Of a DNA stretch of 64,000 bases, positions 6,010-62,035 are shown in pieces. Numbering within the stretch: the first letter of the stretch is position 1; each line of letters opens with the position of its first letter. The notes beneath the pieces are model-generated. The model was not told the DNA's origin and did no database searches. It worked only from the letters and a program-made list of their open reading frames with translations. The DNA is from Methylophilus sp. (GTDB lineage: Bacteria > Pseudomonadota > Gammaproteobacteria > Burkholderiales > Methylophilaceae): assembly GCA_033762415.1 (NCBI GenBank), contig JANRLR010000003.1, forward strand, positions 39,009-103,008. The letters are read 5' to 3'. Both the position numbers and the translations under genes were made by a program.

Positions 6010-6023
6010 ACCCATTTGGGCTA
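6010..6023 (+). promoter_or_regulatory. Candidate transcription-factor site ACCCATTTGGGCTA, shared with the two PEP-CTERM promoters
   Basis: Near-identical 14-mers at 61308-61321 and 62022-62035; all three are intergenic and in the same orientation to the downstream gene. Confidence 0.45.
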
Positions 6024-6114
6024 ATGACCCTATATTTCGCTTGCTTAACCAAATAAAGAGAATTATATTCAGCCAAATCAATAATTTACAAACAATGCGC
6101 TTGACAAAAATAAA

Positions 6115-7755
6115 GTGAAAAACTTACTAACTACATTTTTGAAAAAAGACACCTCGGGGTATCATCACGCTAAGCTAAGTTGGCTTAGCGAGCTCAATCA
6201 GCTTGATGAAATCGCGAGCATAAAGCTATCGATTAGTCACATCACTACGATCCCCAACGACCCCAAGCTCACATTGCCAGAAAAAATCAATGTACTAGTC
6301 GCCATTGAAGATGCAAATGAAGCCTCGGTGCACATGCAAACCACGCAATTTGTAAAAGCAGATTACTTAAGTGCACAAGTTGCCGACAATATTATCAATA
6401 ATCATTATGCTTATCACAGAATATTATTTCTCGCATACTCCAAGCTGATTGGGATTAGTTACGGCCGCCCTTCCGACCAACAACCCAGCAAACATCTCAA
6501 GCTGATTATGGTCACTAGAGCCTTGATTGCCGCAGCCAATATGCTGAAATGGCGCTATTTTGAGCACGCTGCCGCACCAGCAAATCTTTGGGAGCAAGTC
6601 AACGCCATTTATCAGCGTGCTGATGAGGATTTGTTATGTAAACAATTAACGCAACCCTTCAAACGCTTACCCAGCACAACCATCACCAGCCTATTTCTGC
6701 AACTGCACATGTTTGGCAGCCTTAACTTTAGCAATTTACTTAAACAGCATTTAGATGTCATTGCCCAGCTCCTGCAAACATGGATGAATGAGGTACGCAT
6801 CAAGAAAAATGTTGAGCCATACCACCTGTTTTATATGGACTTAAATAAAGACCAACCTGCTAATCGCATTAGAAAGAAACGTCCAGAAGGCAACTGTTTA
6901 TTTTGGGATTTAGACGAGATTGAGTATATTATTAATATTTACATTCAATCACTTAGTGATAACAAAATGCCTCAAGGGTTACAACAAATTGATGCTAAAA
7001 ACACCCCTATTATCAAAGAAGCTTTGTGTTTTCTTAAAAACGAATGGTCTAAAGACAACTATAAGAGACAACGCAGAAAAGAGGCACGTCAAAAAACAGA
7101 ACGCATTGTGACTGTCACAGTAGGCATTCACAACATCTGTGAGCTACTCAAGCTATCTAATTTAACCATGCATTCCGCAAAAAGCATGTTAGACGGCACA
7201 CTCGATGACCGCCGTTTGGCTACAAGCGTAGTCATGCGTGGAGAGATTAACACGCTTACGATAGGCAAAGAAAAATGGACCGTTTTAGATGAAAGCAGTT
7301 CTGGCTTAGGCTCATTAATTTCTCAACGTAATGCGCCCAATATCAAGCCAAATAAGCTAGTGGCTATACTCAGCAAAAATGAAAACACTAAGCCTACATT
7401 AAATCTGGTGAGAAACATTCGGCAGATGAGTGGTGGGCAACTCAAAATTGGTATGGAAATTTATACGGATAATCCCACTTTAATCAGCTTAAAAAAGCTT
7501 GATTTGAAAAAAGAAAAAGATGTGCAACCACATATACCACCTATCATCAGCCATCTGAATTTCTTAGCCATTTACATTCCACAAAATATTTTGTTGGAGC
7601 GTGCTGCAAGTTTTATTTTGCCAAAAGCAGACTTTGTACCTAATGCATTTTATGAAATTCATTTTAAAAACAAGCGTGAAATCATCAAATTGCAAAGTCC
7701 AATCGAAACTGGAGACGACTGGGTTCGAGTAGCTTTCCCAGAAGAGTTGAAATAA
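6115..7755 (+). CDS. Putative c-di-GMP receptor with PilZ-type motifs (FimW-like architecture)
   Basis: 546 aa; RQRRKEAR (RxxxR) followed by WTVLDESSSGLG (D/NxSxxG); helical N-terminal region; GTG start. Confidence 0.55.
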   Translation: MKNLLTTFLKKDTSGYHHAKLSWLSELNQLDEIASIKLSISHITTIPNDPKLTLPEKINVLVAIEDANEASVHMQTTQFVKADYLSAQVADNIINNHYAYHRILFLAYSKLIGISYGRPSDQQPSKHLKLIMVTRALIAAANMLKWRYFEHAAAPANLWEQVNAIYQRADEDLLCKQLTQPFKRLPSTTITSLFLQLHMFGSLNFSNLLKQHLDVIAQLLQTWMNEVRIKKNVEPYHLFYMDLNKDQPANRIRKKRPEGNCLFWDLDEIEYIINIYIQSLSDNKMPQGLQQIDAKNTPIIKEALCFLKNEWSKDNYKRQRRKEARQKTERIVTVTVGIHNICELLKLSNLTMHSAKSMLDGTLDDRRLATSVVMRGEINTLTIGKEKWTVLDESSSGLGSLISQRNAPNIKPNKLVAILSKNENTKPTLNLVRNIRQMSGGQLKIGMEIYTDNPTLISLKKLDLKKEKDVQPHIPPIISHLNFLAIYIPQNILLERAASFILPKADFVPNAFYEIHFKNKREIIKLQSPIETGDDWVRVAFPEELK

Positions 7756-7868
7756 TGTGAGCGATACGACTTACAAATAAATAAGAAGAGAAACCATATT
7801 TTTGATATAAAACCGTTGTAAATCAATTGCCAAGGATATATTATTCTCTAAACGCTTGAGGAGTTACC

Positions 7869-8216
7869 ATGGAGATTCATACGGGTGAAATTTACGGCAA
7901 ACAAACTGCTAGTAAATTTGTCATGTACAGCGTACTTAAGGTGAGCAAGGCCAAAGGCGATAGCAAAGATATAGTCACGCTACAAAATATCGACAATCCG
8001 TTGAGCTTATTTGAAACCACCGCACAAAAACTCAGCACATCGGGTTACATACGTGTGAGCCAGACACCCTATATTAATATCAATGTCACCAGCACAAAAA
8101 AGAAAAAAGTAATTAAAAAGCCCACGCGTTGTCCCTATACATTAGATTTTTTAGAAGCACGTGCCGACTCTGAGCGCCCTGTTACAGTTTTACCAGATTT
8201 ATTTAGTACAATTTAA
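7869..8216 (+). CDS. Hypothetical 115-aa basic protein
   Basis: RBS gaggag before ATG; Lys-rich patch, RCPYTLDF and C-terminal PDLF; no family recognised. Confidence 0.7.
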   Translation: MEIHTGEIYGKQTASKFVMYSVLKVSKAKGDSKDIVTLQNIDNPLSLFETTAQKLSTSGYIRVSQTPYININVTSTKKKKVIKKPTRCPYTLDFLEARADSERPVTVLPDLFSTI

Positions 8217-8229
8217 TTGATTTTTTAAC

Positions 8230-9468
8230 TTAATATTGATCTACGCCCTGACAAACCCAATCCCAGCTCAGTAGTTCTTCTTTATTTTGTTCCGCTAATA
8301 ATTCAGACATAATGGTATTGCCATAATTTTCTGGCGAATGAAACGCTAATAAGCGCCTTGCTTGCGGTGATGTTTGGTAATTTTCTGACCGAGCAATCGC
8401 ACGTGTTATCGCCGCACTAACAGATGCAATTTCAAGCACATGACACAACTCTCCCAGCGCAAATCGTTTAGTCATCATGCCCGTATAGCCACAATCATCT
8501 ACGATAATTGGCTTTTCGTATGACACCGCTTTCAGCAAATTTGCGGACAAATTCATACGTCGATACTGCAATAACACATTCACATCAATCGCAGCATAAC
8601 CTAATTGCACTTCCTCATTACTTAAAAAACGATTCATGACAATAATGCGTTGCGATTTAACCAAATCACCGTATTGACTCTCAATTATCGCGGCATACTC
8701 TGGTGACATAAAGCCTGCCAGCAATAACCGACTCGTTTCGTGAGCTTTAGAATGGACAAACCCCGCCAACACTTCAGGGATAGCCTTGCGATTATCCATC
8801 ATGCCAACAAACCCAAGATATGTTCCTTCGGTTGGCAGATTAAGCCGTTGACGCGCCTCGATCTTATCAATATCGATTTTAGCTACTACAGGATCTGGTA
8901 ACAAAGTAAGCTTCTGCGAAAATGCATCATTTTTTGCAAGCAAACTTTCATAAACAAGTGGATTTACAAATAGAAAGCGATCCCAACTTGCATGACGCCA
9001 TGAAGTTTCATAAATCCATTGCTTGACACGCTCTTTCCAAGATAACGCAACGCCGCTTGGAAACCCATAATGAAAAATACCAACGGCTCTTGTGCCTGAC
9101 TTAAACCCGAAATGTGCTTGCCTTTTAAATAACGCATTCATCATCACATCATAATCTGCGGAAGTACAAATCACAGCATCTGGCCGGACCTCTTTGACTG
9201 CCGCATTCATCACATCAAATAAATGCTTGCGATCCCATGTATTCGGATCTGGATTTGTTTCAGGCAGATTAGGTGAAAAACGTAAGTTGACTTGCTCTGT
9301 TTTGATAACCCCCTGTTCCTGCAACGCCTCGAAATGTCTAGGCGTAATCGTAATCACAACTTCACTCAATCGTCCATTTTCTAAAAAATGCCGAAAAGTG
9401 GGCAACAAAGCTTCAATATAATTACTATGATGCCCTCCTTGAAAAGCTTCAATCAGCTGAATTTTCAT
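8230..9468 (-). CDS. Glycosyltransferase, GT-B fold (GT4-like)
   Basis: GGHHSNY N-terminus; FVGMMDNRKAI and SANLLKAVSYEKPII nucleotide-sugar-binding region. Confidence 0.7.
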   Translation of the reverse strand: MKIQLIEAFQGGHHSNYIEALLPTFRHFLENGRLSEVVITITPRHFEALQEQGVIKTEQVNLRFSPNLPETNPDPNTWDRKHLFDVMNAAVKEVRPDAVICTSADYDVMMNALFKRQAHFGFKSGTRAVGIFHYGFPSGVALSWKERVKQWIYETSWRHASWDRFLFVNPLVYESLLAKNDAFSQKLTLLPDPVVAKIDIDKIEARQRLNLPTEGTYLGFVGMMDNRKAIPEVLAGFVHSKAHETSRLLLAGFMSPEYAAIIESQYGDLVKSQRIIVMNRFLSNEEVQLGYAAIDVNVLLQYRRMNLSANLLKAVSYEKPIIVDDCGYTGMMTKRFALGELCHVLEIASVSAAITRAIARSENYQTSPQARRLLAFHSPENYGNTIMSELLAEQNKEELLSWDWVCQGVDQY

Positions 9469-9535
9469 AATTCGAACTCCATAGATTAATCTTCATAATC
9501 GTTAACCTGTTAACTAATCGTTTACTTGCACCACA

Positions 9536-10867
9536 TCAATTAGGTGGCCCACCTCTTAAATCATGTCCATCCGCGCTATAAATCTCCACCTCCACAAAAT
9601 CCCCAGGCGTTAACCCTTCCGCATCTTCCATATACACCACACCATCAATCTCTGGCGCATCGGCTTTGGTGCGGCCAATCGCCTCAATATTGCCTTCACT
9701 GTCTTGCACAATTTCATCCACCAACACCGTTTGCATGCTGCCGATTTTATGGTGTAGCTTAGCCGCGCTAATACGCTCTTGCACCGCCATAAAGCGGCTT
9801 AGGCGCTCTTGTTTCACTTCTTCTGGCACTTGGTCAGGCAAGTCATTGGCTTTGGCGCCATCGACCGCAGAATAAGCAAAACAACCCACTCTATCCAATT
9901 GTGCCTCTTCTAAAAAGTCGAGCAGCATTTGAAAGTCATCTTCGGTCTCACCTGGAAAGCCTGCAATAAAGGTAGAACGCACGGTGATATCGGGGCAGAT
10001 TTCGCGCCACGCTTTGATTCTGGCCAAATTATTCTCGGCATGCGCTGGGCGTTTCATCGCCTTTAAAATCCACGGACTCGCATGCTGAAACGGCACGTCT
10101 AAATACGGCAAAATGAGGCCATCAGCCATCAGCGGAACAACCTCATCCACGTGCGGGTATGGATACACATAATGCAGGCGTATCCACACACCCAGCTCAC
10201 TTAGGGCTTTACTGAGTGCCGTCATATGCGTTTTTACTGGGCGGCCGTTCCAAAAACCGCTACGATATTTCACATCTACACCGTAAGCAGACGTATCTTG
10301 TGAGATGACCAAAATCTCGCTCACACCAGCATTGACAAGGGTTTCCGCCTCATTCATTACTTCGCCAATGGGGCGGCTCACCAAATCACCACGCATACTG
10401 GGGATAATGCAAAAGCTGCAGCGGTGGTTGCAACCTTCTGAAATTTTTAAATAGGCGTAATGACCAGGCGTCAGGCGAATGCCTTGCGGTGGCACTAAAT
10501 CGGTGTAAGGGTCGTGCAATTTGGGCAAATTGGCGTGCACATGCGTCATCACCTCTTCTAATGCATGCGGGCCAGTCACTGCCAACACGGAAGGATGCGC
10601 ATTTTGTACTACGTCTTTTTTGGCGCCTAGACAGCCTGTGACGATCACTTTGCCGTTTTTATGTAGCGCTTCACCAATCGCATCTAGACTTTCTTGCACG
10701 GCAGAATCGATAAAGCCGCATGTGTTGACCACCACCAAATCGGATTCTTCATAAGTGCTTGAGATTTCATACCCTTCCGCACGCAATTGCGTGAGAATAC
10801 GCTCAGCATCCGAACCCGCTTTAGGACAACCCAGAGAAACAAAACCTACTTTTGGAATACTACTCAT
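9536..10867 (-). CDS. rimO: Ribosomal protein S12 methylthiotransferase
   Basis: VSLGCPK, NTCGFI, radical-SAM CNHRCSFC, C-terminal TRAM (APEIDG). Confidence 0.97.
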
Positions 10868-10906
10868 AACATAACACCTAACAAAAAATCATTAAAATTC
10901 AGAGAA

Positions 10907-11824
10907 TTAACCCTCAAGCCACCACTTGGTGATAAAAATAGAAGCCACCCCAAGCACGATTAATCCAATCTGCTGTAGCGTATCTTTTATAGCCGTGCGT
11001 TTATGCAGCCCTGGAATCAAGTCTGCTACGGCAACATATAGCATGCTTGCAGCAGCCAAACTTAAGATATAAGGAATCCAACCTTGTACTGTTTGCAACG
11101 CAGCATACGCCAACAGACCACCCACCATGGTTGCTAAACTGGAAAATAAATTAAACAATAACGCTCGCTTTTTACTATAGCCAGAATGCAGGAGAATCAA
11201 AAAGTCACCTATTTCTTGTGGAATTTCATGCGCAATAATCGCTAATGCAGTCACTAAGCCAACTTGAATATTCACCATAAAGGCTGCGGCAATCAGAATA
11301 CCGTCCACAAAATTATGGAAGGTATCGCCTATCATAATCATCAAACCACTTCTGCCACCGTCATGCTCATGGCTATGACTATGACGTGTTGCAACAAGGC
11401 TAGGCGCTTTTTTTTCTACTGATTTAAATTTAAGGCCTGTGTGTTGTGATGTCGCTTGATGGTCGGGGCAATGCGCTTCGTCATGCAAAGCATGCGCTTC
11501 ACAGTGATCACCATGACAATGGCGCCATAACACCAGTTTTTCCAACGTAAAAAATAGCAAGATGCCAAATAAAATGGTACTCGTCATCGACTCTACATTT
11601 GGTGCCACTTCAATCGCATGCGGTAGGATTTCAAGAAAAACTGCGCCTAATAACGCACCTATCGCATAACTTACCAACAAAGGCACCCAATGGCGCTGAG
11701 CGTTAAGTGCAAAAAATGCTGCAATTAATACACTTAATACCCCACCGACCAAACTGGTAGTGATAATCCAAGCCAACGGTGACATTTCAATTACATTCAT
11801 CTCTATTCTCAAATTAAGGAGCAA
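10907..11824 (-). CDS. ZIP-family divalent metal (Zn) transporter
   Basis: GDTFHNFVDG and AHEIPQEIGDF motifs; His-rich loop. Confidence 0.9.
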   Translation of the reverse strand: MLLNLRIEMNVIEMSPLAWIITTSLVGGVLSVLIAAFFALNAQRHWVPLLVSYAIGALLGAVFLEILPHAIEVAPNVESMTSTILFGILLFFTLEKLVLWRHCHGDHCEAHALHDEAHCPDHQATSQHTGLKFKSVEKKAPSLVATRHSHSHEHDGGRSGLMIMIGDTFHNFVDGILIAAAFMVNIQVGLVTALAIIAHEIPQEIGDFLILLHSGYSKKRALLFNLFSSLATMVGGLLAYAALQTVQGWIPYILSLAAASMLYVAVADLIPGLHKRTAIKDTLQQIGLIVLGVASIFITKWWLEG

Positions 11825-12566
11825 GCCAAATCATGGTAGCCATCCTGCCTGTGTCACCATCGCGCCTGAAGGAAAAAAAACGTTCTGCATCCGTATAGGT
11901 ACACCATTGCTGATCTATACTACTGCCGTAAATTTGCGTGACACCCGCTTGATTCAAGCGCTGTATGGCAATTTGGTAAAGATTGCCGAGCCATTTATTT
12001 GCTCTGGGCATAAAGGCTGTCTCTGCATTAGCATCCTTTTTGATAAACTGCATTCTGACTTCATCACCCACTTCAAATGCGTCAGGACCAATCGCAGGAC
12101 CAAGCCAAGCCATGAGCGATGTATTTTCAGCGGGCATAGCAGCTACCGTGGCCTCTATCACACCATCGCACAAGCTACGCCAGCCGGCATGCACAGCAGC
12201 AACCGTTGTACCTTGCTTATCGCACAATAGTACTGGTAAACAATCTGCGGTCATGGTCACGCATACTACATTCGTTTGGCGTGTGAATGCCGCGTCTGCA
12301 TACTCTACACAACTGCTTAATGCCGCATCAATGACACGGATACCATGCACTTGATTTAACCACACAGGTTCAGTTGGGACAAAAGCATTTAACAGCTGGC
12401 GGTTATGCGCTACAGCAAAAGCGTCATCATTGACATGACTTCCCAGATTCAGACTATCGTATGGCGCTTGACTCACCCCGCCTTTGCGCGTGGTTTGTAT
12501 AGCCTTAACATTTGCGGGGGCTGACCAATCGGGGTAAATAAAATTGTCAGCTAAATAACTACTCAT
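11814..12566 (-). CDS. pgeF: Peptidoglycan editing factor / purine nucleoside phosphorylase (YfiH)
   Basis: QVHG, TADCLPV, HAGWR, FFSFRR; follows rluD. Confidence 0.93.
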   Translation of the reverse strand: MSSYLADNFIYPDWSAPANVKAIQTTRKGGVSQAPYDSLNLGSHVNDDAFAVAHNRQLLNAFVPTEPVWLNQVHGIRVIDAALSSCVEYADAAFTRQTNVVCVTMTADCLPVLLCDKQGTTVAAVHAGWRSLCDGVIEATVAAMPAENTSLMAWLGPAIGPDAFEVGDEVRMQFIKKDANAETAFMPRANKWLGNLYQIAIQRLNQAGVTQIYGSSIDQQWCTYTDAERFFSFRRDGDTGRMATMIWLAP

Positions 12567-13653
12567 CTTCTAATAGATCTTCATCTTCAAAATCGTCGTC
12601 GTCAGCCAAATCAAAATCATCTTCATCATCACCAATATACAAGCCATCTTCATCTACATTAAAATCATATGGCAACGCTTCAGGTGCTTCCACAGTACGC
12701 ATGGCATCCAGCAGCTCGCGCATGTCATCCGCCAACTCAATTTGCCACTCCATCGGTTCATTGGTTTTGGGATGGACCAATCCTAATTTAATCGCATGTA
12801 GCGCTTGACGCTTAAAATGTGTAATGGCTTCACGCAACACAGGCGTCATCAATTTATGCGGAATGATATTTCCGATCCCGTATAAAGGATCGCCTACCAT
12901 TGGCGCTTTTAAAAACTGCATGTGTACACGAATCTGGTGAGTACGCCCAGTTTCTAGATTGCAACGCATATAAGTATTGGTACCGAATCGCTCTAACACT
13001 TCATAATGAGTAACCGCTGGCTTGCCTGTGCGCGTCACTGCCATCTTAGTTCTGGCATGGGGATGACGACCTATCGGTTGATCAATCTTTCCATTGCGCC
13101 AAATTTGACCCCATACAATCGCACGATATTCACGCTTGACTGTTCTGGCTTGCAACTGACGCACCAAGCTGGTTTGCGCTTCTAATGTTTTGGCCACTAC
13201 AAGCAAACCGCTGGTATCTTTATCAAGCCGATGCACAATGCCGCAACGAGGAATTTCAGATAACGAGGGTAAATGAAATAACAACGCATTCAATAAGGTG
13301 CCAGTCCAATTGCCTGCGGCTGGATGTACCACTAATCCTGCAGGCTTATTAATCACTAGTAGCTCATCATCTTCATAAACAATATCCAATGGGATGTCTT
13401 CTGGCTTAAAAGCATTCTCCTGCATATTGACAGGCGGATTGATGGCCACACGTTCGCCGCCCCATACTTTGGTTTTAGCACTGGTAGCTTCACCGTTGAG
13501 CGTGACCAACCCCTCTTTAATCCATGCTTGCAAACGACTACGTGAGTGTTCTGGAAACATTTGTTGCAATGCCAAATCCAACCGATGCCCACCTAAATGC
13601 ATGGGTACAGAGAAATTGTGGTTTACGCTTTCTTTCATATTTTGTAATTGCAT
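12559..13653 (-). CDS. rluD: 23S rRNA pseudouridine synthase D with an acidic C-terminal tail
   Basis: S4 domain, HRLDKDTSG, GRTHQIRVH; divergent from bamD. Confidence 0.95.
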   Translation of the reverse strand: MQLQNMKESVNHNFSVPMHLGGHRLDLALQQMFPEHSRSRLQAWIKEGLVTLNGEATSAKTKVWGGERVAINPPVNMQENAFKPEDIPLDIVYEDDELLVINKPAGLVVHPAAGNWTGTLLNALLFHLPSLSEIPRCGIVHRLDKDTSGLLVVAKTLEAQTSLVRQLQARTVKREYRAIVWGQIWRNGKIDQPIGRHPHARTKMAVTRTGKPAVTHYEVLERFGTNTYMRCNLETGRTHQIRVHMQFLKAPMVGDPLYGIGNIIPHKLMTPVLREAITHFKRQALHAIKLGLVHPKTNEPMEWQIELADDMRELLDAMRTVEAPEALPYDFNVDEDGLYIGDDEDDFDLADDDDFEDEDLLEDE

Positions 13654-13694
13654 CAGTTATAATGTTGCAATTCTCTAACCTTGGGTTTTTAATA

Positions 13695-14507
13695 GTGAAC
13701 CGTATTTTACCGCTTATCTTGGTTTTACTTTCAGCTTTATTTCTGAATGGCTGTGCAATTTTTGGTGCACCTACTGAACTAGATGACACCAAAGGCTGGC
13801 AAGCAGATCGTATTTACGCTGCTGGCCAAGAAAAAATGCAAGATAAAGACTATGACAAAGCCATCGTCTATTTTCAAAAACTTGAATCAAGATTCCCGCA
13901 TGGCGCATATGCGCAACAAGCGCAATTAGAAATTGCGTATGCCTACTATAAAAAAGATGAGGCTGTACAATGTATCGCTGCTGCTGACCGGTTCATGAAA
14001 CTGCATCCTAACCATCCCAACATTGATTATGCATACTACCTAAAAGGGCTCGCTACATTCAATGAGCGTGGCATTATTGAAAAACTCTCTGATCAAGAAA
14101 TCAATGATCGCGATCCAAAAACTTTAAAACTCTCATTCGCCGCGTTTAAAGACCTGACTGACCGTTACCCTAAAAGTAAGTATTTTAAAGATGCAACACA
14201 ACGCATGGTGTATATCGTAAATGCGCTGGCACAACATGAGCTGCATGTAGCACGCTATTACATGCAACGCACAGCCTATGTAGCCGCACTTAACCGCGCG
14301 AAATACGTCATTGAATATTACCCGAACTCTACTGGTGTAGAAGAGGCCTTAGTCATTATGGTGAGTGCCTATGACAATATGGAAATGGAAGATTTTAAAA
14401 ATGATACTTTGCGCATTCTGAAAACGAATTACCCAGAAAACCCCATGATTACTGGGAAAGTAAAACAGGATGAAAAAGTCTGGTGGAAATTCTGGAAAAA
14501 CTTCTAG
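13695..14507 (+). CDS. bamD: Outer-membrane assembly lipoprotein BamD
   Basis: GTG at 13695, lipobox LNGC, TPR motifs (HPNIDYAYYLKGL). The track start at 13524 overlaps rluD and is too long. Confidence 0.93.
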   Translation: MNRILPLILVLLSALFLNGCAIFGAPTELDDTKGWQADRIYAAGQEKMQDKDYDKAIVYFQKLESRFPHGAYAQQAQLEIAYAYYKKDEAVQCIAAADRFMKLHPNHPNIDYAYYLKGLATFNERGIIEKLSDQEINDRDPKTLKLSFAAFKDLTDRYPKSKYFKDATQRMVYIVNALAQHELHVARYYMQRTAYVAALNRAKYVIEYYPNSTGVEEALVIMVSAYDNMEMEDFKNDTLRILKTNYPENPMITGKVKQDEKVWWKFWKNF

Positions 14508-14529
14508 ATCACTGCACTACCAACATAGC

Positions 14530-49949: not shown

Positions 49950-49963
49950 TTTTTTGACTATTC

Positions 49964-51319: not shown

Positions 51320-51333
51320 TATTTAAACCCAAA

Positions 51334-52164: not shown

Positions 52165-52165
52165 T

Positions 52166-52196
52166 AAAAAAGGGCTGGTAATTGAGACCAGCCCTT
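52166..52196 (-). terminator. Terminator-like hairpin after ftsH
   Basis: Minus strand AAGGGCTGGT-CTCAATT-ACCAGCCCTT plus U-run. Confidence 0.7.
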
Positions 52197-52214
52197 ATTC
52201 TAACCTAAAAAGCC

Positions 52215-54104
52215 TTAATCGCTCTTGGCAGTTGGTTGAGGCGTTGGCTTTACTACCGTACCAGAACTACCGCCAGTTGTTGACTTAATAGGTGACTGGC
52301 GTGGTTTAGGCTCACGGACAGGCAAGCCTGCCATAATGTCATTGATCTGATCCGCATCGATGGTTTCAAACTCCATCAGCGCAGCAGTCATCGCCTCTAC
52401 CTTGTCACGATTATCTTCCAGCAACTTGCGTGCAATCGCATACTGCTCATCCAAAATACGACGAATTTCTGCATCAACCTTTTGCTGTGTAGCTTCTGAC
52501 ACTGTTTTAGAGCTCATGCTACCAAAAAACGAGTCCTGCTCACTTCCTGCATATACCATTGTGCCTAGCGCATCCGACATCCCAAACTTAGTGACCATAT
52601 CACGTGCCAGTTTAGTAGCACGCTCAAAGTCGTTAGATGCACCAGTTGACATTTGATGCATAAAGATTTCTTCAGCAATACGTCCGCCAAATAAAATTGA
52701 AATCTCTTCGAGCATCTTATCTTTGTAGTTGCTGATGCGGTCAAACTCTGGCAACTGCCATGTCAACCCTAGCGCCCAACCACGCGGCATAATGGTTACC
52801 TTATGTACCGGATCAGCCTTAGGTAGTAGCTTGGCGACCACAGCATGCCCAGATTCGTGATATGCGGTGTTGCGGCGCTCCTCTTCACGCATCACCATAG
52901 ACTTACGCTCTGGCCCCATAAAGATTTTATCTTTCGCATCTTCAAAGTCAGCCATATCCACAGTACGTTTATTGCGACGCGCTGCAAATAACGCAGCCTC
53001 ATTCACCAGATTCGCCAAATCAGCACCACTAAAGCCAGGGGTACCACGTGCAATAATATCGGCTTTCACATCAGGATCAATCGGCACTTTACGCATGTGC
53101 ACCATCAAAATCTGTTCACGCCCTTTAATGTCAGGTAAGCCAACCATTACTTGACGATCAAAACGACCAGGGCGCAATAAGGCTTTATCAAGCACATCGG
53201 CACGGTTTGTTGCAGCAATCACAATCACACCTGAATTGGCTTCAAAACCATCCATTTCTACTAACATTTGGTTAAGTGTCTGTTCACGCTCGTCGTTACC
53301 GCCACCTGTACCCGCGCCACGACTACGGCCGACTGCATCAATCTCATCAATAAAAATAATACAAGGTGAGTTTTTCTTGGCAGTCTCGAACATATCGCGC
53401 ACGCGCGCAGCACCGACGCCGACAAACATCTCCACGAAATCAGAACCAGAAATGGTAAAGAACGGCACTTTTGCTTCACCTGCAATCGCACGTGCAAGTA
53501 AAGTCTTACCTGTCCCTGGAGGCCCGACCATCAAAACCCCACGGGGGATACGCCCCCCCAATTTTTGAAACTTACCTGGATCGCGCAAAAACTCAACTAA
53601 TTCAGTTACTTCTTCTTTGGCTTCATCGCAACCTGCAACATCTGCAAATGTGGTTTGATTTGAACTCTCGTCTAACTGACGCGCTTTACTTTTACCAAAG
53701 GAGAATGGACCGCCGCCTTTGCCGCCGCCTTGCATCTGACGCATGAAGAAAATCCACACGCCAATTAACAATATCATCGGGAACCATGACACAAATATAC
53801 TCATTAGTACTGACTCTTGTTCTTCTGGCTTCGCTTGCACCACAACGTGATTTTTTAGCAAATCAGAAACAAGCCAAGGATCATTAGGCGCATAGGTGTT
53901 AAATGTTTTATTGTCTTGCGTAGTCACACGCAGCACACGCCCGTCAATTTGTACTTTTGCAACGTGGCCATCTTTAACCTGCTGCATGAATTGCGAGTAA
54001 TCGACCTGACCCTCTGCTTTACTCGAGCTATCAAATTGCTTAAATACAAGCAATGATACTAATATGATAGCAATCCAAATTGCTAATTGTTTGATATTGT
54101 TCAA
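52215..54104 (-). CDS. ftsH: ATP-dependent zinc metalloprotease FtsH
   Basis: [23 protein letters not shown]. Confidence 0.98.
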
Positions 54105-54191
54105 TTACGTTCCTTCACCTAAATCCTAGGGATGATTAATTTTATACCTTTTTAACGGCAATATGTAATACAACTATAGCGGAACTACACA

Positions 54192-54809
54192 TTATTTACG
54201 TTTCAAACCCAATAAATACACCTCACTACTGCGATCACGCGAGGCTTTGGGTTTACGTGTCACGACCTTCTCGAAATGTAAGCGCATCGTTTTGACGATT
54301 TCATCAAACCCACTACCGATGAACACTTTGACCAGAAAATTACCCCCTGGTTTCAACCAAACCTGACTAAATTCTAGCGCCAGCTCAGTTAAGTATGCAG
54401 CGCCTGCTTGATCCACATCTTTTACACCGCTTATATTGGGTGCCATATCTGCAATTACAAGGTCAACCAGCTTATTATTTAATTTTTCTTCTAACTGCTT
54501 AAGTACGGCCTCTTCTCTAAAATCCCCTTGAATAAACTCCACATGAGGAATACCCTGCATCTCTAATATGTCTAAGGCAATCACACGTCCCTGACCTTTT
54601 AAACGCTGCACTACTACTTGCGACCAACTCCCTGGCGTAGAACCTAAATCTACGATGGTCATCCCTGGCTTAATGAGTTTATCTTTATCGTCTATCTCAA
54701 TCAGCTTATATGCTGCGCGCGCACGATACCCTTCCTTTTGTGCAAGTTTAACGTAAGGGTCATTTAAATGCTCTTGCATCCAAGCTTTACTGGTTCTGGT
54801 GGGTTTCAT
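54192..54809 (-). CDS. rlmE: 23S rRNA Um2552 methyltransferase
   Basis: YRARAAYKL, DLGSTPGSW, KPKASR. Confidence 0.96.
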   Translation of the reverse strand: MKPTRTSKAWMQEHLNDPYVKLAQKEGYRARAAYKLIEIDDKDKLIKPGMTIVDLGSTPGSWSQVVVQRLKGQGRVIALDILEMQGIPHVEFIQGDFREEAVLKQLEEKLNNKLVDLVIADMAPNISGVKDVDQAGAAYLTELALEFSQVWLKPGGNFLVKVFIGSGFDEIVKTMRLHFEKVVTRKPKASRDRSSEVYLLGLKRK

Positions 54810-54945
54810 ACGTGAAGAAGTGAATACTTGATAAGCTATTTTACACTTTAATTAGATTATTAGGTCGCCCTGCCTTCACGCACATGCATGCTGGCAGCGC
54901 CCAAATCTAAAGTCTAGTTAATTCATAATTGAATAATTTCAGAAT

Positions 54946-54981
54946 CATTGCGCCTTACGCGGGCATTGCGCCTTACGCGGG
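54946..54981. repeat. Perfect 18-bp tandem duplication CATTGCGCCTTACGCGGG x2 (REP-like remnant)
   Basis: Direct reading; GC-rich in an AT-rich spacer just before the low-GC ORF. Confidence 0.85.
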
Positions 54982-55008
54982 CTATGATCGCCCAATTCCG
55001 ATAGAATA

Positions 55009-55317
55009 GTGAAAATGAGAGGGATATTAATTTTTACATTGATAGTAATCATATTTAGTATGCTTTATCATCAAGCATGGATGTTTGCTTTTAAGAGTTT
55101 TCTTGGAGGTAAGAAACTCAATGATAATTTGCATGTACTAATGTTATATATAATTCCATTTTTAATAGTAATTTTTACTGGATTAAAGTTAGGATCGTTT
55201 AAATATACTAGTATTTGGAATAAATTTTTATTATCCTTTATGGCGGCTTTGTTACCACTAGTAGGACTACAGTTGCTTTTTTTAATATCTTGTATATTTG
55301 CCGAGAGCTGTCTTTAA
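55009..55317 (+). CDS. Low-GC hypothetical membrane protein (about three TMs)
   Basis: 102 aa; three sampled 60-nt lines are 20-30% GC; inserted between rlmE and yhbY. Confidence 0.6.
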   Translation: MKMRGILIFTLIVIIFSMLYHQAWMFAFKSFLGGKKLNDNLHVLMLYIIPFLIVIFTGLKLGSFKYTSIWNKFLLSFMAALLPLVGLQLLFLISCIFAESCL

Positions 55318-55417
55318 ATAAAATAATCTGGGTTAGCTCAGACCACGATTAATTTTCATCTTTGCTTTCCATTCACGTAATAAAAACCTGTGTATCGGTT
55401 TATGTTAAAATAGAACC

Positions 55418-55723
55418 ATGAAATTAACAACCAAACAAATTGCGCACTTACGTGGCCTTGCGCACAGCTTAAACCCTGTCGTGATGATAGGCAATCAGGG
55501 CTTGACAGAAAATGTGCTCAAAGAAATTGATTTAAATTTGAATGCGCATGAGCTCATTAAAGTGCAAGTTGCTGGAGATGATAGAGATGCCAGAAAAGCA
55601 ATGTACGCAGAAATATGTGATAAAACTAACGCTATTGCAGTACACCACATCGGCAAACAATTAGTATTTTATCGGGCGAGTGACTCTATTAAAGAATCAG
55701 CAAAGGTTGTGATTCCCAAGTAA
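55418..55723 (+). CDS. yhbY: CRM-domain RNA-binding protein YhbY
   Basis: LRGLAHSLNPVVMIG..G, HELIKV, IGKQLVFYR. Confidence 0.93.
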   Translation: MKLTTKQIAHLRGLAHSLNPVVMIGNQGLTENVLKEIDLNLNAHELIKVQVAGDDRDARKAMYAEICDKTNAIAVHHIGKQLVFYRASDSIKESAKVVIPK

Positions 55724-55738
55724 TCTAAAATGTGTAAT

Positions 55739-56176
55739 CTAACGCACCCTAAGCACCAACACAAAACCTAACAGGCACTCAATTACATAGGCAATGCTGG
55801 CCACGCCGTGCCAAGTGTTAAATCGATTGGCAAACACACTATGCATGACATCATTAGGTAATGCGTCCGTTTTCATCTGCGCCAGCAAGGGCTGAATACC
55901 AAAATGCCCAGCGAGCACTAGCAACAACATCACCAACACCGCCCAAAAATACTGCTGTTTTAAGGCGTTGGTTCCAAACTCAAGCAGGCGCTGGATGAGC
56001 AGATAAAAGGCACTTACCATGCCGATGTAGCTCATCACGGTAAACAAATGACCCGCGACATTTCCTGCAAGCTGCCTATCTTGTAATGTATTAAATAATA
56101 TATACGCGCTGAGCCCTGTCATCCAAAGCCCACCCACCCACAGGGTAATGATAATTAGCGTGAATTTGCGTGACAT
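55739..56176 (-). CDS. DUF4149 membrane protein
   Basis: LWVGGLW...DRQLAG.VAG...F..WHG.AS; conserved neighbour of greA in betaproteobacteria. Confidence 0.8.
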   Translation of the reverse strand: MSRKFTLIIITLWVGGLWMTGLSAYILFNTLQDRQLAGNVAGHLFTVMSYIGMVSAFYLLIQRLLEFGTNALKQQYFWAVLVMLLLVLAGHFGIQPLLAQMKTDALPNDVMHSVFANRFNTWHGVASIAYVIECLLGFVLVLRVR

Positions 56177-56177
56177 A

Positions 56178-56660
56178 TTAAATGTACTGTACTTCTATAA
56201 TTTCGTACTCTTTAACACCACCTGGAGATTGCACCTCTGCCACATCTCCTTCTGATTTACCAATCAGACCACGTGCAATGGGCGAACTCACTGAAACTTT
56301 ACCATTTTTAATATCAGCTTCATCCTCACCCACAATTTGGTATGTTTTAATGTCGCCAGAATCTAAATCTTCAAATCGTACAGTCGCGCCAAATACCACA
56401 CGTCCTTCAGCATTCAGGGTTTTAGGATCAATAATCTGCAAATTAGAAAGTTTACCTTCGAGCTCTGCAATGCGACCCTCAATAAAACTTTGGCGCTCTT
56501 TGGCTGATTCGTATTCTGCATTTTCGGACAGATCACCTTGCGCGCGCGCTTCAGCTATCGCTTGAATAATGTTGGGTCTATCTACAGAGCGCAAACGTTG
56601 CAGCTCCTCTTTCATTAATTCAGCACCAATAACTGTCACTGGAATTTGGTTTACCGCCAT
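56178..56660 (-). CDS. greA: Transcription elongation factor GreA
   Basis: [23 protein letters not shown]. Confidence 0.97.
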
Positions 56661-56680
56661 AACGCTACCTTTATCATCTT

Positions 56681-56716
56681 AAAAAAATAAACCACACTCA
56701 GCATAGAGCGTGGTTT
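56681..56716 (-). terminator. Terminator-like hairpin after carB
   Basis: Minus strand AAACCACGCTC-TATGCT-GAGTGTGGTTT plus U-run. Confidence 0.6.
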
Positions 56717-56735
56717 GAACAGTATTTAGTGTATT

Positions 56736-59700
56736 TTATACCAGCTTTTTATGCAAGTCCTGTATCGATTCCACATTCAACTCCTGCATATAAGTCATAC
56801 CGATACATGCCGCTTTTGCACCTGCTAATGTTGTGTAATAAGTGACTTTATTTTGTAACGCGCTGCGGCGGATTTCATAAGAATCTGCTACCGCTTTTTT
56901 GTCTTCTGTGACGTTGACAATAAAATTAATTTCATTGTTTTTAATCATATCCACAATATGTGGGCGACCCTCTGCGACTTTATTCACAGGCGTTACTGTC
57001 AGGCCATTTTCAGCCAAGGCTCTAGCGGTACCCTTGGTTGCCACTAAAGTAAAGCCTAAGCTAGCTAAATCTCTCGCAATATCAACCACTTTTTGGTGGT
57101 CTTCGTTACGTACACTAATGAAGGCTTTACCCCCTTTAGGAATCACAACCGAAGCCCCTAGTTGCGACTTCACAAAAGCTTCCGCGAATGTCGCACCCAC
57201 CCCCATGACTTCCCCTGTCGATTTCATCTCTGGGCCTAAAATCGTATCCACACCAGGGAATTTGATAAATGGGAACACCGCCTCTTTTACAGAATAATAG
57301 GGTGGAATCACTTCTTTAGTCATGCCTTGAGCTTTAAGGGTTTGACCCGCCATACAACGCGCTGCAATTTTTGCCAGTTGCAAACCACATGCTTTTGACA
57401 CAAAGGGTACGGTACGCGATGCACGAGGGTTGACCTCTAACACATAAACTGTTTCACCTTGAATTGCAAACTGGACATTCATTAAGCCCTTTACACCCAA
57501 GGCCATAGCCATCTGCACGGTTTGACGACGCAGCTCATCTTGTAACGCTGCGCTTAAACTATAAGGCGGCAATGAGCAAGCTGAATCCCCAGAGTGCACA
57601 CCAGCCTGTTCTACGTGCTGCATAATGCCGCCGATAAGCACCTCTTCACCATCACTGATGGCATCTACGTCAATTTCCAGCGCATCATTTAGGAATCGAT
57701 CCAGCAATACTGGCGAATCATTTGACACTTTAACGGCTTCACGCATATAGCGTTCAAGCTGACTTTGCTCATGCACAATTTCCATGGCGCGCCCACCCAA
57801 TACATAACTTGGACGAACGACGAGCGGATAACCAATCTCTTCCGCCAAACGAATCGCCTCATCAGGTGCGCGTGCCGTTCTGTTGGGAGGCTGCTTCAAA
57901 CCTAATGTCTGTAGCATTTTTTGAAAACGTTCGCGATCTTCAGCTCGGTCGATCGCATCTGGTGTGGTACCAATAATGGGCACCCCTGCTTTTTCTAAGC
58001 CGCGCGCCAATTTTAGAGGGGTTTGACCGCCATACTGGACGATCACACCGAAAGGCTTCTCAATATTGACGATTTCTAACACATCTTCAAGCGTGACTGG
58101 TTCAAAGTATAATCTGTCTGAGGTGTCATAATCTGTCGAAACCGTCTCTGGATTGCAATTGACCATGATGGTTTCATAACCATCGTCACGCATCGCAAAT
58201 GCGGCATGCACGCAGCAATAATCAAACTCTATTCCTTGACCAATACGGTTTGGCCCGCCACCCAGCACCATGATTTTTTTGTTATTGGTAGGCTGTGCTT
58301 CGCACTCTTCTTCGTAAGTGGAATACATATAAGCAGTATTCGTCGCGAACTCTGCCGCACAGGTATCTACGCGCTTGTAAACGGGGCGCACATTGAGCGC
58401 TTGCCGATACGCGCGCACCGCATGCTGATCAGTATCAAGCAAATGCGCCAAACGTCGATCGGAAAACCCGCGACGCTTTAATTGATACAAAGCCTCTTTA
58501 TCAAGATCTGCAATGTGTTTGCCTTTCAGTGCATGCTCGCGATCAATAATGTCTTTAATTTGCGCCAGAAACCAAGGGTCTATCTTCGTAATATCAAATA
58601 CTTGCGCTATGGTCATGCCAATTCTAAAAGCGTCTGCCACATACCATATACGTTCTGGCCCTGGCTCACCCATTTCTTTTGCAATGCGATCGGCATCCGT
58701 AGTAATGGTATCCAATCCATCTACGCCAACTTCTAAGCCACGTAACGCTTTTTGGAAAGATTCCTGAAAGGTGCGACCAATTGCCATGACCTCACCGACA
58801 GATTTCATTTGTGTCGTCAAACGGCTGTCCGCTTGCGGGAACTTCTCAAATGCAAATCTTGGTATTTTAGTTACAACGTAATCAATAGAAGGCTCAAAGC
58901 TTGCAGGGGTCGCTCCGCCCGTAATTTCATTACGCAATTCGTCTAAGGTATAGCCTACTGCTAACTTGGCTGCTACTTTGGCAATAGGAAAACCTGTCGC
59001 TTTAGAGGCCAATGCAGATGAACGCGACACGCGCGGATTCATCTCAATGACAATCATGCGACCATCTTCTGGATTAATGGCAAACTGTACGTTAGAACCA
59101 CCTGTATCCACACCAATTTCACGCAGTACCGCCAGCGAGGCGTTACGCATAATCTGGTATTCTTTATCAGTGAGTGTTTGCGCTGGTGCCACAGTAATTG
59201 AGTCACCCGTATGCACACCCATCGGGTCTAAGTTTTCAATGGAGCAGATAATAATGCAGTTATCTGCTTTATCACGCACCACTTCCATCTCATACTCTTT
59301 CCAGCCGAGCATAGATTCTTCAATCAACAACTCTTTGGTAGGAGATGCATCTAAACCACGTTCACAAATCGTAATAAATTCTTCACGATTATAAGCAATA
59401 CCGCCGCCACTTCCACCCATGGTAAATGAAGGGCGGATAATGGCAGGATAACCAATATTCGCCTGCACTTGTAGCGCCTCTTCCATACTGTGTGCAATAG
59501 CAGATTTAGCAGAACCCAAGCCAATTTTAGTCATGGCTTCTTTAAATTTTTGACGGTCTTCCGCTTTATCAATGGCCTCTTTTGAAGCACCAATCAGCTC
59601 CACGTTGTACTTTTTCAGCACACCATGCTTGTCCAAATCTAGCGCACAATTTAACGCGGTTTGTCCGCCCATGGTAGGGAGTAATGCATCTGGTTTTTCT

Positions 59701-59939
59701 TTGGCGATAATTTTCTCTACCACTTGCCAAGTAATGGGTTCGATATAAGTCGCATCCGCCATCTCAGGGTCTGTCATGATCGTAGCTGGGTTAGAGTTTA
59801 CCAAAATGACACGGTAACCTTCTTCACGCAACGCTTTACATGCCTGCGCCCCAGAATAATCAAACTCACAGGCTTGACCAATGACTATCGGACCGGCGCC
59901 GATGATGAGGATACTTTTAATGTCGGTTCTTTTAGCCAT
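56736..59939 (-). CDS. carB: Carbamoyl-phosphate synthase large subunit
   Basis: [17 protein letters not shown], duplicated ATP-grasp domains, MKSTGEVMG. Confidence 0.98.
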
Positions 59940-61075
59940 TAACTGGATTTTCTTTCTTGCATTAAATCAATAAATTGGTCAAACAAATAACTCATTTCTG
60001 TCGGGCCAGGACTCGCTTCAGGATGACCTTGAAAGCTAAATGCAGGCTGATCGGTGCGCGCAATGCCTTGCAAGCTACCATCAAATAAAGAGACATGCGT
60101 CACTTTCACATTGGCTGGCAATGTATTAGGGTCTGCTGCAAATCCATGGTTCTGACTAGTGATGTATACGCGCTTGGTTTCTACGTCTTGTACGGGATGA
60201 TTGGCACCGTGATGACCAAATTTCATTTTCAATGTTTTAGCGCCAGAAGCCAGAGCCAATAACTGATGTCCTAAACAAATGCCAAATGTGGGAATGCCTG
60301 TCTCTACCAATGTTTCAATGGCTTTAATTGCATAATCGCATGGCTCTGGATCGCCAGGGCCATTTGATAAAAAAATGCCATCAGGCTTATAACCAAGTGC
60401 TTGCGCTGCAGTCGCTTGTGCTGGCAACACAGTGACTTTACAGCCACGCGATACCAGCATACGCAAAATATTACGCTTTACACCGTAATCGAATGCCACG
60501 ACATGAAATGCTGAGTCTTTAGGCGCTGCAAATCCTTTATCCAGGCTCCACTCCCCTTCTGCAAACTCATAAGGGCTTTTGCAACTAACTACCTTGGCTA
60601 AGTCCAACCCTGCTAGGCCTGAGAAACTTTTGGCTAACTGCAACGCTTTAGCTTCATCCACATCGCCCGCCATCACGCATCCTGTTTGTGCACCTTTTTC
60701 ACGCAAAATACGTGTAAGCTTACGCGTATCAATGTCAGCAATTGCCACAACATTATTAACAATTAAATATTCAGATAAGGTTTGATTGCTGCGGAAGTTG
60801 TTGTGCAGCAAAGGTAAATCGCGAATAATTAAACCAGATGCATACACGCTTCCTGACTCGACATCTTCAGCGTTAGTACCATAGTTGCCAATATGCGGGT
60901 AAGTCAGTGTCACAATCTGCTTGGTATAGGAAGGATCTGTCAAGATTTCCTGATAGCCTGTCATGGAGGTGTTAAACACCACCTCGCCCACGGTTTGACC
61001 AGAAGCACCGATAGAGATGCCTTTAAAAACAGTTCCATCTGCCAAGACTAAAATCGCTGGAATTGTTTTTGACAC
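59939..61075 (-). CDS. carA: Carbamoyl-phosphate synthase small subunit
   Basis: [26 protein letters not shown]; GTG start at 61075. Confidence 0.97.
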
Positions 61076-61124
61076 CTTAAGCTCCTTAAATTTGATACGA
61101 CACACACCCATAAATAGATGTGCA

Positions 61125-61157
61125 AAACGGGAAAAGCTTTAATAACTCTTCCCGTTT
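61125..61157 (-). promoter_or_regulatory. carA 5' leader hairpin (possible attenuator)
   Basis: Minus strand AAACGGGAAGAG-TTATTAAAG-CTTTTCCCGTTT(T), immediately downstream of the predicted start site. Confidence 0.5.
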
Positions 61158-61169
61158 CAGAATTGATGC

Positions 61170-61198
61170 ATTATAGCCGAAATAACTTTAAGCCTCAA
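61170..61198 (-). promoter_or_regulatory. Sigma70 promoter of carA
   Basis: Minus strand TTGAGG-N17-TATAAT. Confidence 0.75.
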
Positions 61199-61307
61199 GC
61201 GCGCCCTATACAAGTGACCACATTAAACGCCACTACATGGATTCATGTACGCTTAAATTTCGTGCTTGTTGTAAAACGCTTGAAAGTTTAAATTTAAATA
61301 AAAATAT

Positions 61308-61321
61308 ACCTATTTGGGCTA
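61308..61321 (+). promoter_or_regulatory. Shared motif copy ACCTATTTGGGCTA
   Basis: About 70 bp upstream of PEP-CTERM gene 1. Confidence 0.45.
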
Positions 61322-61393
61322 TTGCAATCAAATTAAAATGACACGTATACTGTACACATGTATAGATACAATAACTTTCGAAAGGGATGCAAA

Positions 61394-61945
61394 ATGAAAT
61401 TACGTTTGTTAGCTGCATTACTCGCTACAGTCAGCTTTTCGGCTCAGGCGAACACACTTAACACGACTGTCGATGTTTCCACTAAAACAAAAACCGTACA
61501 GTATGTTAACTTTAATGTGAGTAGCGCAGGTGCTTTCAGCATCACAGCCACAAGGAATTTGGCAGATGTCACGCATTATCTCGCAGATCCTTTTGTTTAT
61601 TTATTTAAGGGGAGCTTGGACGCTGCCAACTTTCTGCAAGCCAACGATGACGCGAATGATTTTACTTGGAACTCTTTAATTAATCGTAACCTTGATTCTG
61701 GTAGCTATATCCTAGCCATTTCCTCATTTAACTTCACACTCAACAATGCATTAAACGGCACTAACTTGTGGGTGAACGATATTAATCATGGTCTTGTAGA
61801 TATTGGCATTAGCTCAAGAAATGGTATTGCCTCATTAGCAAATTCCACCGCCTCTGTGTCTGCTGTGCCAGTTCCTGCGGCAGCTTGGTTGTTTGGTACT
61901 GGATTACTGAGTCTAGCTGGTTTAAGAAAACGTAAATCTACTTAA
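61394..61945 (+). CDS. PEP-CTERM (VPLPA-type) surface protein 1 with a PPC/DVUA0089-like domain
   Basis: Signal peptide, DPFVYLF...NDD...L..GSYILAIS, C-terminal VPVPAAAWLFGTGLLSLAGLRKRK. Confidence 0.9.
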   Translation: MKLRLLAALLATVSFSAQANTLNTTVDVSTKTKTVQYVNFNVSSAGAFSITATRNLADVTHYLADPFVYLFKGSLDAANFLQANDDANDFTWNSLINRNLDSGSYILAISSFNFTLNNALNGTNLWVNDINHGLVDIGISSRNGIASLANSTASVSAVPVPAAAWLFGTGLLSLAGLRKRKST

Positions 61946-61968
61946 TTTAAGACTTAGCTTGAAAATAT

Positions 61969-61997
61969 AAAAACCGCATACATTATGCGGTTTTTTT
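61969..61997 (+). terminator. Intrinsic terminator
   Basis: AAAAACCGCATA-CAT-TATGCGGTTTTTTT. Confidence 0.85.
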
Positions 61998-62021
61998 GTT
62001 CCAAATTTAACACTTCATACC

Positions 62022-62035
62022 ACCCAAATGGGCTA
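62022..62035 (+). promoter_or_regulatory. Shared motif copy ACCCAAATGGGCTA
   Basis: About 105 bp upstream of PEP-CTERM gene 2. Confidence 0.45.

Follow-up and report, generated by a model that had tools for sequence, protein, structure and literature searches.

A 16-bp imperfect palindrome (the box) recurs upstream of genes for PEP-CTERM proteins and for exopolysaccharide (EPS) export in the genome of Methylophilus sp. and in related genomes of Methylophilus/Methylotenera, at a fixed phase to the predicted promoters. It was followed from a stretch of 64,000 nucleotides (the window; C3:39009-103008 of an assembly of 2,498,180 bp in 16 contigs, C1 and so on, with ~43% GC), in which it stands 5' of two VPLPA-CTERM genes and of a gene for a FimW-like PilZ protein. 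The box is almost certainly a real cis-regulatory element of a PEP-CTERM/EPS regulon, and the make-up of this regulon, namely VPLPA-CTERM/PEP-CTERM exosortase substrates, the eps export operon and a few other secreted proteins, is well supported. As a whole, the observations are best explained by a class II box centred at approximately -43 to which a LuxR-type activator, most likely EpsA, would bind (rough probability 0.6). All promoters given here are consensus predictions, and the transcription starts are likewise predicted.

Box copies in the window and in the genome

The 14-mer ACCYAWWTGGGCTA, which a first, sequence-only reading of the window had proposed as the operator of an EPS/PEP-CTERM regulon, has exact matches on the + strand at 6010-6023, 61308-61321 and 62022-62035, against an expectation of 0 from 100 shuffles. 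As had been described, all three copies are intergenic and oriented towards the downstream gene. The distance from the start of the motif to the likely start codon is 105 bp (GTG 6115), 86 bp (ATG 61394, the signal-peptide start, preferred to 61358, where the longer ORF begins) and 120 bp (ATG 62142), the last lying beyond the 70-105 bp originally reported. Alignment of the three upstream regions using MAFFT revealed no shared flanks around the copies, indicating that the 14-mer match is not the leftover of a longer duplicated segment; an origin by long duplication, which had been offered for the copies of the PEP-CTERM pair, was therefore rejected.

That the window holds no other copy was correct, and these three are also the only exact copies in the whole genome. 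However, a search allowing up to one mismatch identified 10 copies genome-wide, of which 8 are intergenic in a genome with ~92% of its length inside open reading frames (ORFs; crude ORF calling) (binomial p = 4e-7), and most of the ten sit 5' of secreted or PEP-CTERM genes. A box is present at 5/16 PEP-CTERM genes compared with 12/2409 other genes (Fisher p = 3.7e-8). Occurrence throughout the genome without positional bias, which had been named as a finding that would tell against an operator, was thus not what was observed: the bias is strong. The two VPLPA-CTERM proteins of the window score above the cut-offs of 25.35 bits for TIGR03370 and 29 bits for NF038127 (Table 1) and also exceed that of 16 bits for TIGR02595 (16.8 and 16.9 bits). 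The copies outside the window are listed in Table 1; the first gene of the eps operon listed there was identified by profile scan as encoding a polysaccharide export protein (TIGR03027/EpsE-like). With boxes 5' of other PEP-CTERM genes and of the eps export operon, both in this genome and in dozens of relatives, the proposed regulon has stood up.

Several further matches were set aside. CCATTTGGGCTA at C8:349972 and C9:117080 is intragenic, lacks the left half and was treated as chance, and the match at C13:95074 (GCGCTA, after parB) has no downstream gene in that orientation and is probably a false positive. The count of CCY-N4-GGGCTA was inflated by an unrelated repeat resembling repetitive extragenic palindromic (REP) elements, CCGCCCTACGCGGGCTAG, which was separated out; this intergenic sequence occurs at ~10 places (e.g. 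C5:133632, C7:41891, C12:191868 and C8:310310, outside the window) and, although it contains the GGGCTA of the box, represents a distinct element of a GC-rich hairpin type. At C9:117087-117100 a box lies within the 3' end of a gene taken to be dprA, ~230 bp 5' of smg. One or two such dprA-internal copies, with variable spacers, are kept in numerous genomes of the genus (loci L093, L097, L099, L101, L103 and L105), and may reflect an internal promoter, a regulatory site or a coding constraint.

Palindrome and promoter architecture

The architecture was derived from 60 unique boxes collected from the Methylophilus sp. genome and its relatives. The 14-mer forms the central part of a 16-bp imperfect palindrome, T-n-(A/G)-CCC-AWWT-GGGCTA, usually followed by TTG, with half-site centres 10 bp apart and an A/T-rich N4 between CCC and GGG. 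At the position before CCC, which was unconstrained, meaning that it was left free by the search pattern used to collect the boxes, A was found in 35 and G in 25 boxes and no other base in any; two bases further upstream of this position stands a T in 43/60. The three bases 3' of the box are T, T and G in 47, 56 and 43 of the 60 boxes, respectively, with the full TTG in 38/60, and in 42/60 a TAnnnT hexamer begins 22-23 nt 3' of the box, indicating that the box runs directly into the weak -35 (TTGnnn) of a promoter of the sigma-70 type. Relative to the predicted hexamers, which are separated by a spacer of 16-17 nt, the box occupies about -51 to -36, which puts its centre at -42.5 or -43.5. Perfect dyad symmetry, TAGCCC-N4-GGGCTA, is seen at C8:384124 and C10:1236 and also in many relatives; the copies in the window are imperfect palindromes, with A instead of G and a weak outer TA. 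The pseudo-palindromic CCCA/TGGG core noticed at the outset is part of this unit; that the true unit is a 16-bp palindrome fused to the -35 had been missed.

Conservation in related genomes

A count over 31 genomes of the genus gave about two occurrences of CCCNNNNGGGCTA for each one of its reversed control. In the contexts that were fetched, palindromic boxes of the form TTAGCCC-N4-GGGCTA(A/T)T(G/T) repeatedly stand 5' of PEP-CTERM/VPLPA-CTERM genes, namely in M. aquaticus, M. flavus, M. medardicus, Leaf416, 'Methylophilaceae bacterium 11' and the metagenome-assembled genomes (MAGs) G002, G008 and G018. In M. aquaticus (L092, G225:C6:83000-96000), six tandem VPLPA-CTERM genes with AAAWLFGSGL tails have a palindromic box each. 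This six-gene array is a much expanded version of the two-gene array in the window.

A footprint was assembled from 80 loci around the eps-linked paralogue of epsA. Approximately 35 of these contain a box, nearly all in the orientation of epsA and either 65-220 bp or ~1500 bp downstream of it, and always 5' of a polysaccharide export gene or of a gene for a small signal-peptide protein. Variable spacers contrast there with conserved half-sites, a conserved TTG and a conserved TAGAAT-like -10, a pattern that constitutes a phylogenetic footprint. The orthologous eps box of the closest relatives reads ACCCGTATGGACTA, so GGACTA is tolerated. Among members of other families a box near epsA was absent except in G118 (55% GC), where the region separating epsA from a PEP-CTERM-like gene contains ACCCGAAAGGGCTATTG / ACTACCCGAAAGGGCTATTG and another copy stands 5' of a gene for a small membrane protein. 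No box enrichment was detected in the sister genera G158, G054 and G109, nor in G057 and G112, and inspection of the surroundings of epsA in other genera yielded no convincing comparable palindrome.

EpsA as the candidate binding protein

In the proposed mechanism, a dimeric helix-turn-helix protein would bind the two half-sites 10 bp apart and, once bound, the dimer would act as a class II activator of transcription, in the way known for LuxR at -42.5 and for NarL at -43.5. The most likely binder would be the LuxR-type helix-turn-helix protein EpsA (XrtB/PEP-CTERM-associated transcriptional regulator, TIGR03020). Two genes in the genome exceed the curated, full-length TIGR03020 cut-off of 170 bits, with matches at C2:249257-249976 (228.7 bits) and C8:385128-385874 (222.5 bits), and both have a box nearby. 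The better candidate of the two would be the epsA at C2:249236-249997, directly upstream of the box of the eps operon, rather than the one at C8:385095-385952. An exosortase gene (C2:230422-231111; TIGR02602, 149.5 bits) lies ~19 kb from this eps-linked epsA, and the ORFs between them are glycosyltransferase- and chain-length-determinant-like as judged from their sequences, only the export protein having been scanned. In M. flavus and Leaf416 a box is flanked by a PEP-CTERM gene and the other epsA paralogue, and in a survey of 71 three-kb windows around boxes the only LuxR-type genes encountered were those of EpsA. The recognition helix of the eps-linked EpsA reads S-x-N-TVKNHL-K-R in all box-bearing lineages, including G118, compared with x-F-TVKNHL-Q-R in EpsA of the sister genera G158, G109, G038 and G154; in the two of these that were tested, G158 and G109, the box is not enriched. 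For the other paralogue the helix, PLTVKNHVQNIL, is unchanged in a genus that lacks the box, which favours the eps-linked paralogue. Thus, the adjacency of epsA to boxes, the NarL/LuxR-like geometry and recognition-helix residues that track the presence of the box all favour EpsA, which on this circumstantial evidence is a plausible but unproven candidate for the box-binding protein, with the balance somewhat on its side.

A number of observations weigh against this reading. For the majority of epsA genes in the genus, no strict box lies within 1.5 kb, and no autoregulatory box was found upstream of either epsA gene of this genome; the adjacency is suggestive and not general. The MAGs G002 and G018 have boxes 5' of PEP-CTERM genes but no EpsA. 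As the G018 contig, which is colinear with G008, ends ~5.5 kb short of the expected epsA, and G002 lacks an exosortase as well as EpsA, these absences look like assembly gaps, an explanation by missing data that is no proof. The 6010 box lies 17 bp further from its promoter than the others do, with its centre at approximately -60.5 vs -43.5, and comparison of orthologous loci indicates that the position of this element is conserved and its half-sites are not. Finally, the genome contains five LuxR-type helix-turn-helix genes besides epsA, EpsA-bearing sister genera show no enrichment of the box, and a palindromic box of G008 is flanked by a divergent LuxR gene, encoding a protein of 241 aa, and by a VPLPA-like gene.

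These last three points, together with the distance of most boxes from any epsA, speak for the alternative that survives best, in which the box is a real operator of the regulon that is bound by a different LuxR/NarL-family regulator, such as a response regulator or the divergent LuxR protein of G008, or by an unrelated dimeric factor. The divergent LuxR gene of G008 has a weak homologue in the Methylophilus sp. genome (C12:121930-122559); however, the surroundings of C12:121930 contain no strong box, boxes are not repeatedly accompanied by any other regulator family, epsA is next to a box in this genome (both genes), in M. flavus, Leaf416, G118 and at ~35 further loci, and N/K vs F/Q in the helix tracks the presence of the box. 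We therefore regard a binder other than EpsA as unlikely, if a serious competitor.

Binding of a repressor, which would occlude the -35 and the region upstream of it, is improbable. The box touches the -35, a site at this edge could serve a repressor too, and some promoters have reasonable hexamers (e.g. TTGCAA-N18-TATACT, 9/12); however, most -35 elements match only in TTG (TTGAGT, TTGTGA, TTGCTG), a common trait of promoters that depend on an activator, repressors as a rule bind over the core promoter or the transcription start, and the fixed centre at -42.5/-43.5 is the classic position of a LuxR-family activator (PMC10853779). Activation rather than repression is accordingly the probable mode of action. 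Far less probable still is that the motif represents the -35-type element of a promoter for an alternative, extracytoplasmic function (ECF)-like sigma factor: although its orientation, its fixed distance to a conserved A/T-rich hexamer and its position 5' of secreted-protein genes would fit such an element, many copies are perfect 16-bp palindromes, signalling a dimeric DNA binder, palindromic copies serve divergent genes, and a normal TTG...TAnnnT sigma-70 pair with 16-17 nt spacing follows downstream. Chance similarity combined with the remnant of a tandem duplication of the two PEP-CTERM genes, conceivable for a motif that was defined post hoc and of which 2/3 window copies precede paralogues, is already refuted by the shuffle expectation of 0, the 8/10 intergenic copies, the unalignable flanks and the independent copies 5' of the same gene classes on five other contigs and in dozens of genomes.

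The FimW-like gene and its atypical box

The 546-aa protein encoded downstream of the 6010 copy contains RRKEAR (R321...R325) and DESSSG, and R320, R321, R325, S394 and G397 are invariant in an alignment of 22 sequences. Invariant RRxxxR and DxSxxG constitute the c-di-GMP signature of PilZ domains, so the label 'PilZ-like' given to the gene on first reading was right. Homologues of 40-89% identity carry a precomputed PF27104 (FimW_N) assignment; searches of the protein itself against the local Pfam (a copy without the PF27104 model), NCBIfam and PDB sequences returned no match. An AlphaFold (AF2) model with a pLDDT of 80.9 was compared using Foldseek and matched BcsA with c-di-GMP (E 7e-4) and the PilZ protein PA0012 (prob 0.98, TMt 0.78). 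From its signature residues, the Pfam assignment of its homologues and its predicted fold, the protein is classed as a FimW-like PilZ protein and a candidate c-di-GMP receptor. A second, distant FimW-like PilZ paralogue (22% identity) is encoded at C5:45625-47190 (-), and most genus genomes with matches have both.

The predicted promoter of the gene (Table 1) is conserved as TTGnTT-N17-TATATT at the orthologous loci L003, L004, L006-L008 and L299, and no usable -10 is present at the usual distance from the 6010 box. In the orthologue with 89% protein identity the box is kept, but the whole spacer is nearly identical there, which renders this comparison uninformative. In the orthologue with 52% identity (L299:1400-1500) a different palindrome, TAGCGCATTTGCGCCA, stands precisely where the 6010 box would be, 17 nt ahead of a TTGCTT -35; the G001 orthologue has ACTCTATTGGGCTA in its place, that of G014 is degenerate and more distant orthologues show nothing. 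The orthologue comparison that the sequence-only reading had called for thus found an element at the same place, with half-sites that are different or degenerate. Because of the atypical position at about -60 and the loss of the half-sites in distant orthologues, it is doubtful that the FimW-like gene belongs to the EpsA-type regulon, and its membership would at best be lineage-specific. The 6010 copy fits the box in sequence but not in architecture, and may be a lineage-specific site or one for a different factor; the suggested tie of a c-di-GMP receptor into the regulon is correspondingly weak.

Features of the window and coordinates

The terminator-like hairpin between the two VPLPA-CTERM paralogues (Table 1) separates them, so that the second gene needs a promoter of its own, and each gene has its own box and predicted promoter. 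For both genes, the predicted -10 and transcription start are overlapped by inverted repeats around GTACA, at 61346-61364 (TATAC-N9-GTATA) and 62083-62093 (GTACA-G-TGTAC), which may constitute a second operator. Directly 3' of the pair, a DUF6662 outer-membrane beta-barrel-like protein is encoded at 62844-63755 (E 1e-95), with a good sigma-70-like promoter at 62775-62803 and without a box.

Table 1. Coordinates of box copies, predicted promoters and associated genes. Positions without a contig prefix are those of the window.
Feature	Position	Strand	Remarks
Box copy 1, GCACCCATTTGGGCTA	6008..6023	+	5' of FimW-like PilZ gene; atypical, 17 nt upstream of -35
Predicted sigma-70-like promoter of FimW-like gene, TTGCTT-N17-TATATT	6041..6069	+	Below the 9/12 scan threshold
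FimW-like c-di-GMP receptor candidate, 546 aa	6115..7755	+	PilZ domain at ~residues 315-460
Box copy 2, ATACCTATTTGGGCTA	61306..61321	+	Abuts -35; top position weight matrix score in genome
Predicted sigma-70-like promoter, TTGCAA-N18-TATACT	61322..61351	+	Directly 3' of box copy 2; 9/12
VPLPA-CTERM / DVUA0089-family secreted protein 1, 183 aa	61394..61945	+	TIGR03370 25.9 bits, NF038127 39.8 bits
Terminator-like hairpin between the two paralogues	61969..61995	.	Called on - strand; palindromic stem, T-runs on both sides
Box copy 3, CCACCCAAATGGGCTA	62020..62035	+	Followed by TATCTA-N17-TTTAAT, weak predicted promoter
VPLPA-CTERM / DVUA0089-family secreted protein 2, 176 aa	62142..62672	+	TIGR03370 26.0 bits, NF038127 33.6 bits
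Box, ACCCATTAGGGCTA	C5:117903		79 bp 5' of third VPLPA-CTERM gene, C5:117230-117823
Box, ACCCATATGGGTCA	C8:231683		Two mismatches, outside the ten; 5' of 102-aa VPLPA-CTERM gene C8:231305-231613
Box	C8:424094		5' of 64-aa PEP-CTERM-like gene with IPEE...ARRR tail, within ORF C8:423791-424021
Box	C4:8637		100 bp 5' of gene for 2010-aa secreted protein, C4:2504-8536
Box, ACCCAATCGGGCTA	C2:249160		Directly 3' of epsA, 5' of first eps-operon gene C2:248538-249140
Perfect palindrome, TAGCCCATTCGGGCTA	C8:384124-384139		Between PEP-CTERM gene C8:382932-383792 and dsbC/G-like gene; near second epsA
Perfect palindrome, TAGCCCGTATGGGCTA	C10:1236-1251		Found by search with right half + CCC
Weaker copy, AGCCCAACTGGGCTATTG			189 bp 5' of gspG; found by search with right half + CCC

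Relation to known regulatory systems

The cis-element published for PEP-CTERM genes is a 17-nt motif ending in TTTACA, followed after ~63 nt by a sigma-54 promoter (-24(GG)/-12(GC)) and attributed to PrsR/PrsK/PrsT (Haft et al., 2006; PMC1569441). The box resembles it in being a conserved cis-element of mostly single-gene PEP-CTERM operons, in marking a regulon tied to EPS loci and in having been found by comparison of upstream regions within one genome, and differs from it in being a palindrome fused to a sigma-70-type -35. A scan for the sigma-54 consensus (up to 3 mismatches, GG/GC required) detected none in the 400 bp preceding any of the 16 PEP-CTERM genes, and TTTACA upstream of these genes is sporadic and never paired with a sigma-54 promoter. 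A sigma-54 reading of TGGGCTATTGCA was rejected, the GG...GC spacing being wrong and sigma-54 promoters being absent at the PEP-CTERM genes. Of six ORFs with a GAFTGA motif, the three of response-regulator type all fall short of the PrsR cut-off (TIGR02915, 502.6 bits) with scores of 344-413 and match other families better, and the other three were judged NifA-, NtrC- and AcoR-like from their sequences. With no pair of TTTACA and sigma-54 promoter and no PrsR above cut-off, the box belongs to a different, sigma-70-linked system. The genome has exosortase-family matches at C2:230422, C8:355254 and, weaker, C6:42990 and at least 16 PEP-CTERM-type proteins, and PrsR was not found in it.

Half-sites of the TRGGY/TACCC type are typical of GerE/NarL proteins, and the NarL consensus is TACCCAT-NN-ATGGGTA, composed of TACYYMT heptamers and with CCC and GGG 6 nt apart. 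The box is distinct from this 7-2-7 site proper in that its CCC and GGG are 4 nt apart and its position 3 is A/G rather than C; moreover, EpsA has no receiver domain, and there is no link to nitrate. The lux box is a dyad-symmetric, 20-bp site centred at about -42.5 that takes the place of a good -35 and is bound by a dimer of the LuxR family for class II-type activation. The box described here is likewise dyad-symmetric and centred at -42.5/-43.5 relative to the predicted hexamers, but the lux box is longer, at 20 bp, and unrelated in sequence. Similar in arrangement to the present box is the 16-bp NarL '7-2-7' site at yeaR, which immediately precedes the -35 and has its centre at -43.5 (PMC10853779): both are 16-bp inverted repeats with TA ends and C-rich/G-rich half-sites 5' of the -35, and the likeness would extend to the type of regulator, NarL being a dimer with a LuxR_C/GerE-type helix-turn-helix that activates transcription. 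EpsA differs from the LuxR-type activators of quorum sensing in having no autoinducer-binding domain, as described for EpsA of Curvibacter (PMC13751637). Outside the EpsA family, the best profile match of its helix-turn-helix is the CsgD model. CsgD, the master regulator of the biofilm matrix, is similarly a LuxR-type helix-turn-helix regulator without classical signal input that switches on genes of the extracellular matrix; the homology is confined to the helix-turn-helix, and target sequences, genes and organisms differ.

Implications

The box is not the published PEP-CTERM cis-element, and the literature searched yielded no described operator for EpsA and no description of the box; the mechanism, a dimeric activator at approximately -43, is conventional. 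In a broader scenario, which is unlikely in its entirety and is put forward tentatively, control of exosortase substrates by PrsK/PrsR/sigma-54 would have been replaced in Methylophilus/Methylotenera by a sigma-70 class II circuit of a 'solo' EpsA, specificity would be set by two helix residues (N...K vs F...Q in the sister genera), and the present lineage would have captured the gene of a FimW-like c-di-GMP receptor. If this were true, the EpsA circuit would couple the output of surface proteins and EPS to c-di-GMP-dependent surface behaviour.

PEP-CTERM/exosortase systems are widespread in environmental and in biofilm-forming bacteria, and apart from the PrsR/sigma-54 element the literature searched describes no regulatory element for these systems. 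For important freshwater and soil methylotrophs without PrsR, the box provides a concrete, testable operator and a defined regulon of sorting-signal proteins, EPS export and a few secreted proteins, and the N/K and F/Q versions of the EpsA helix represent a natural specificity-switch pair for the divergence of LuxR-family 'solo' regulators.

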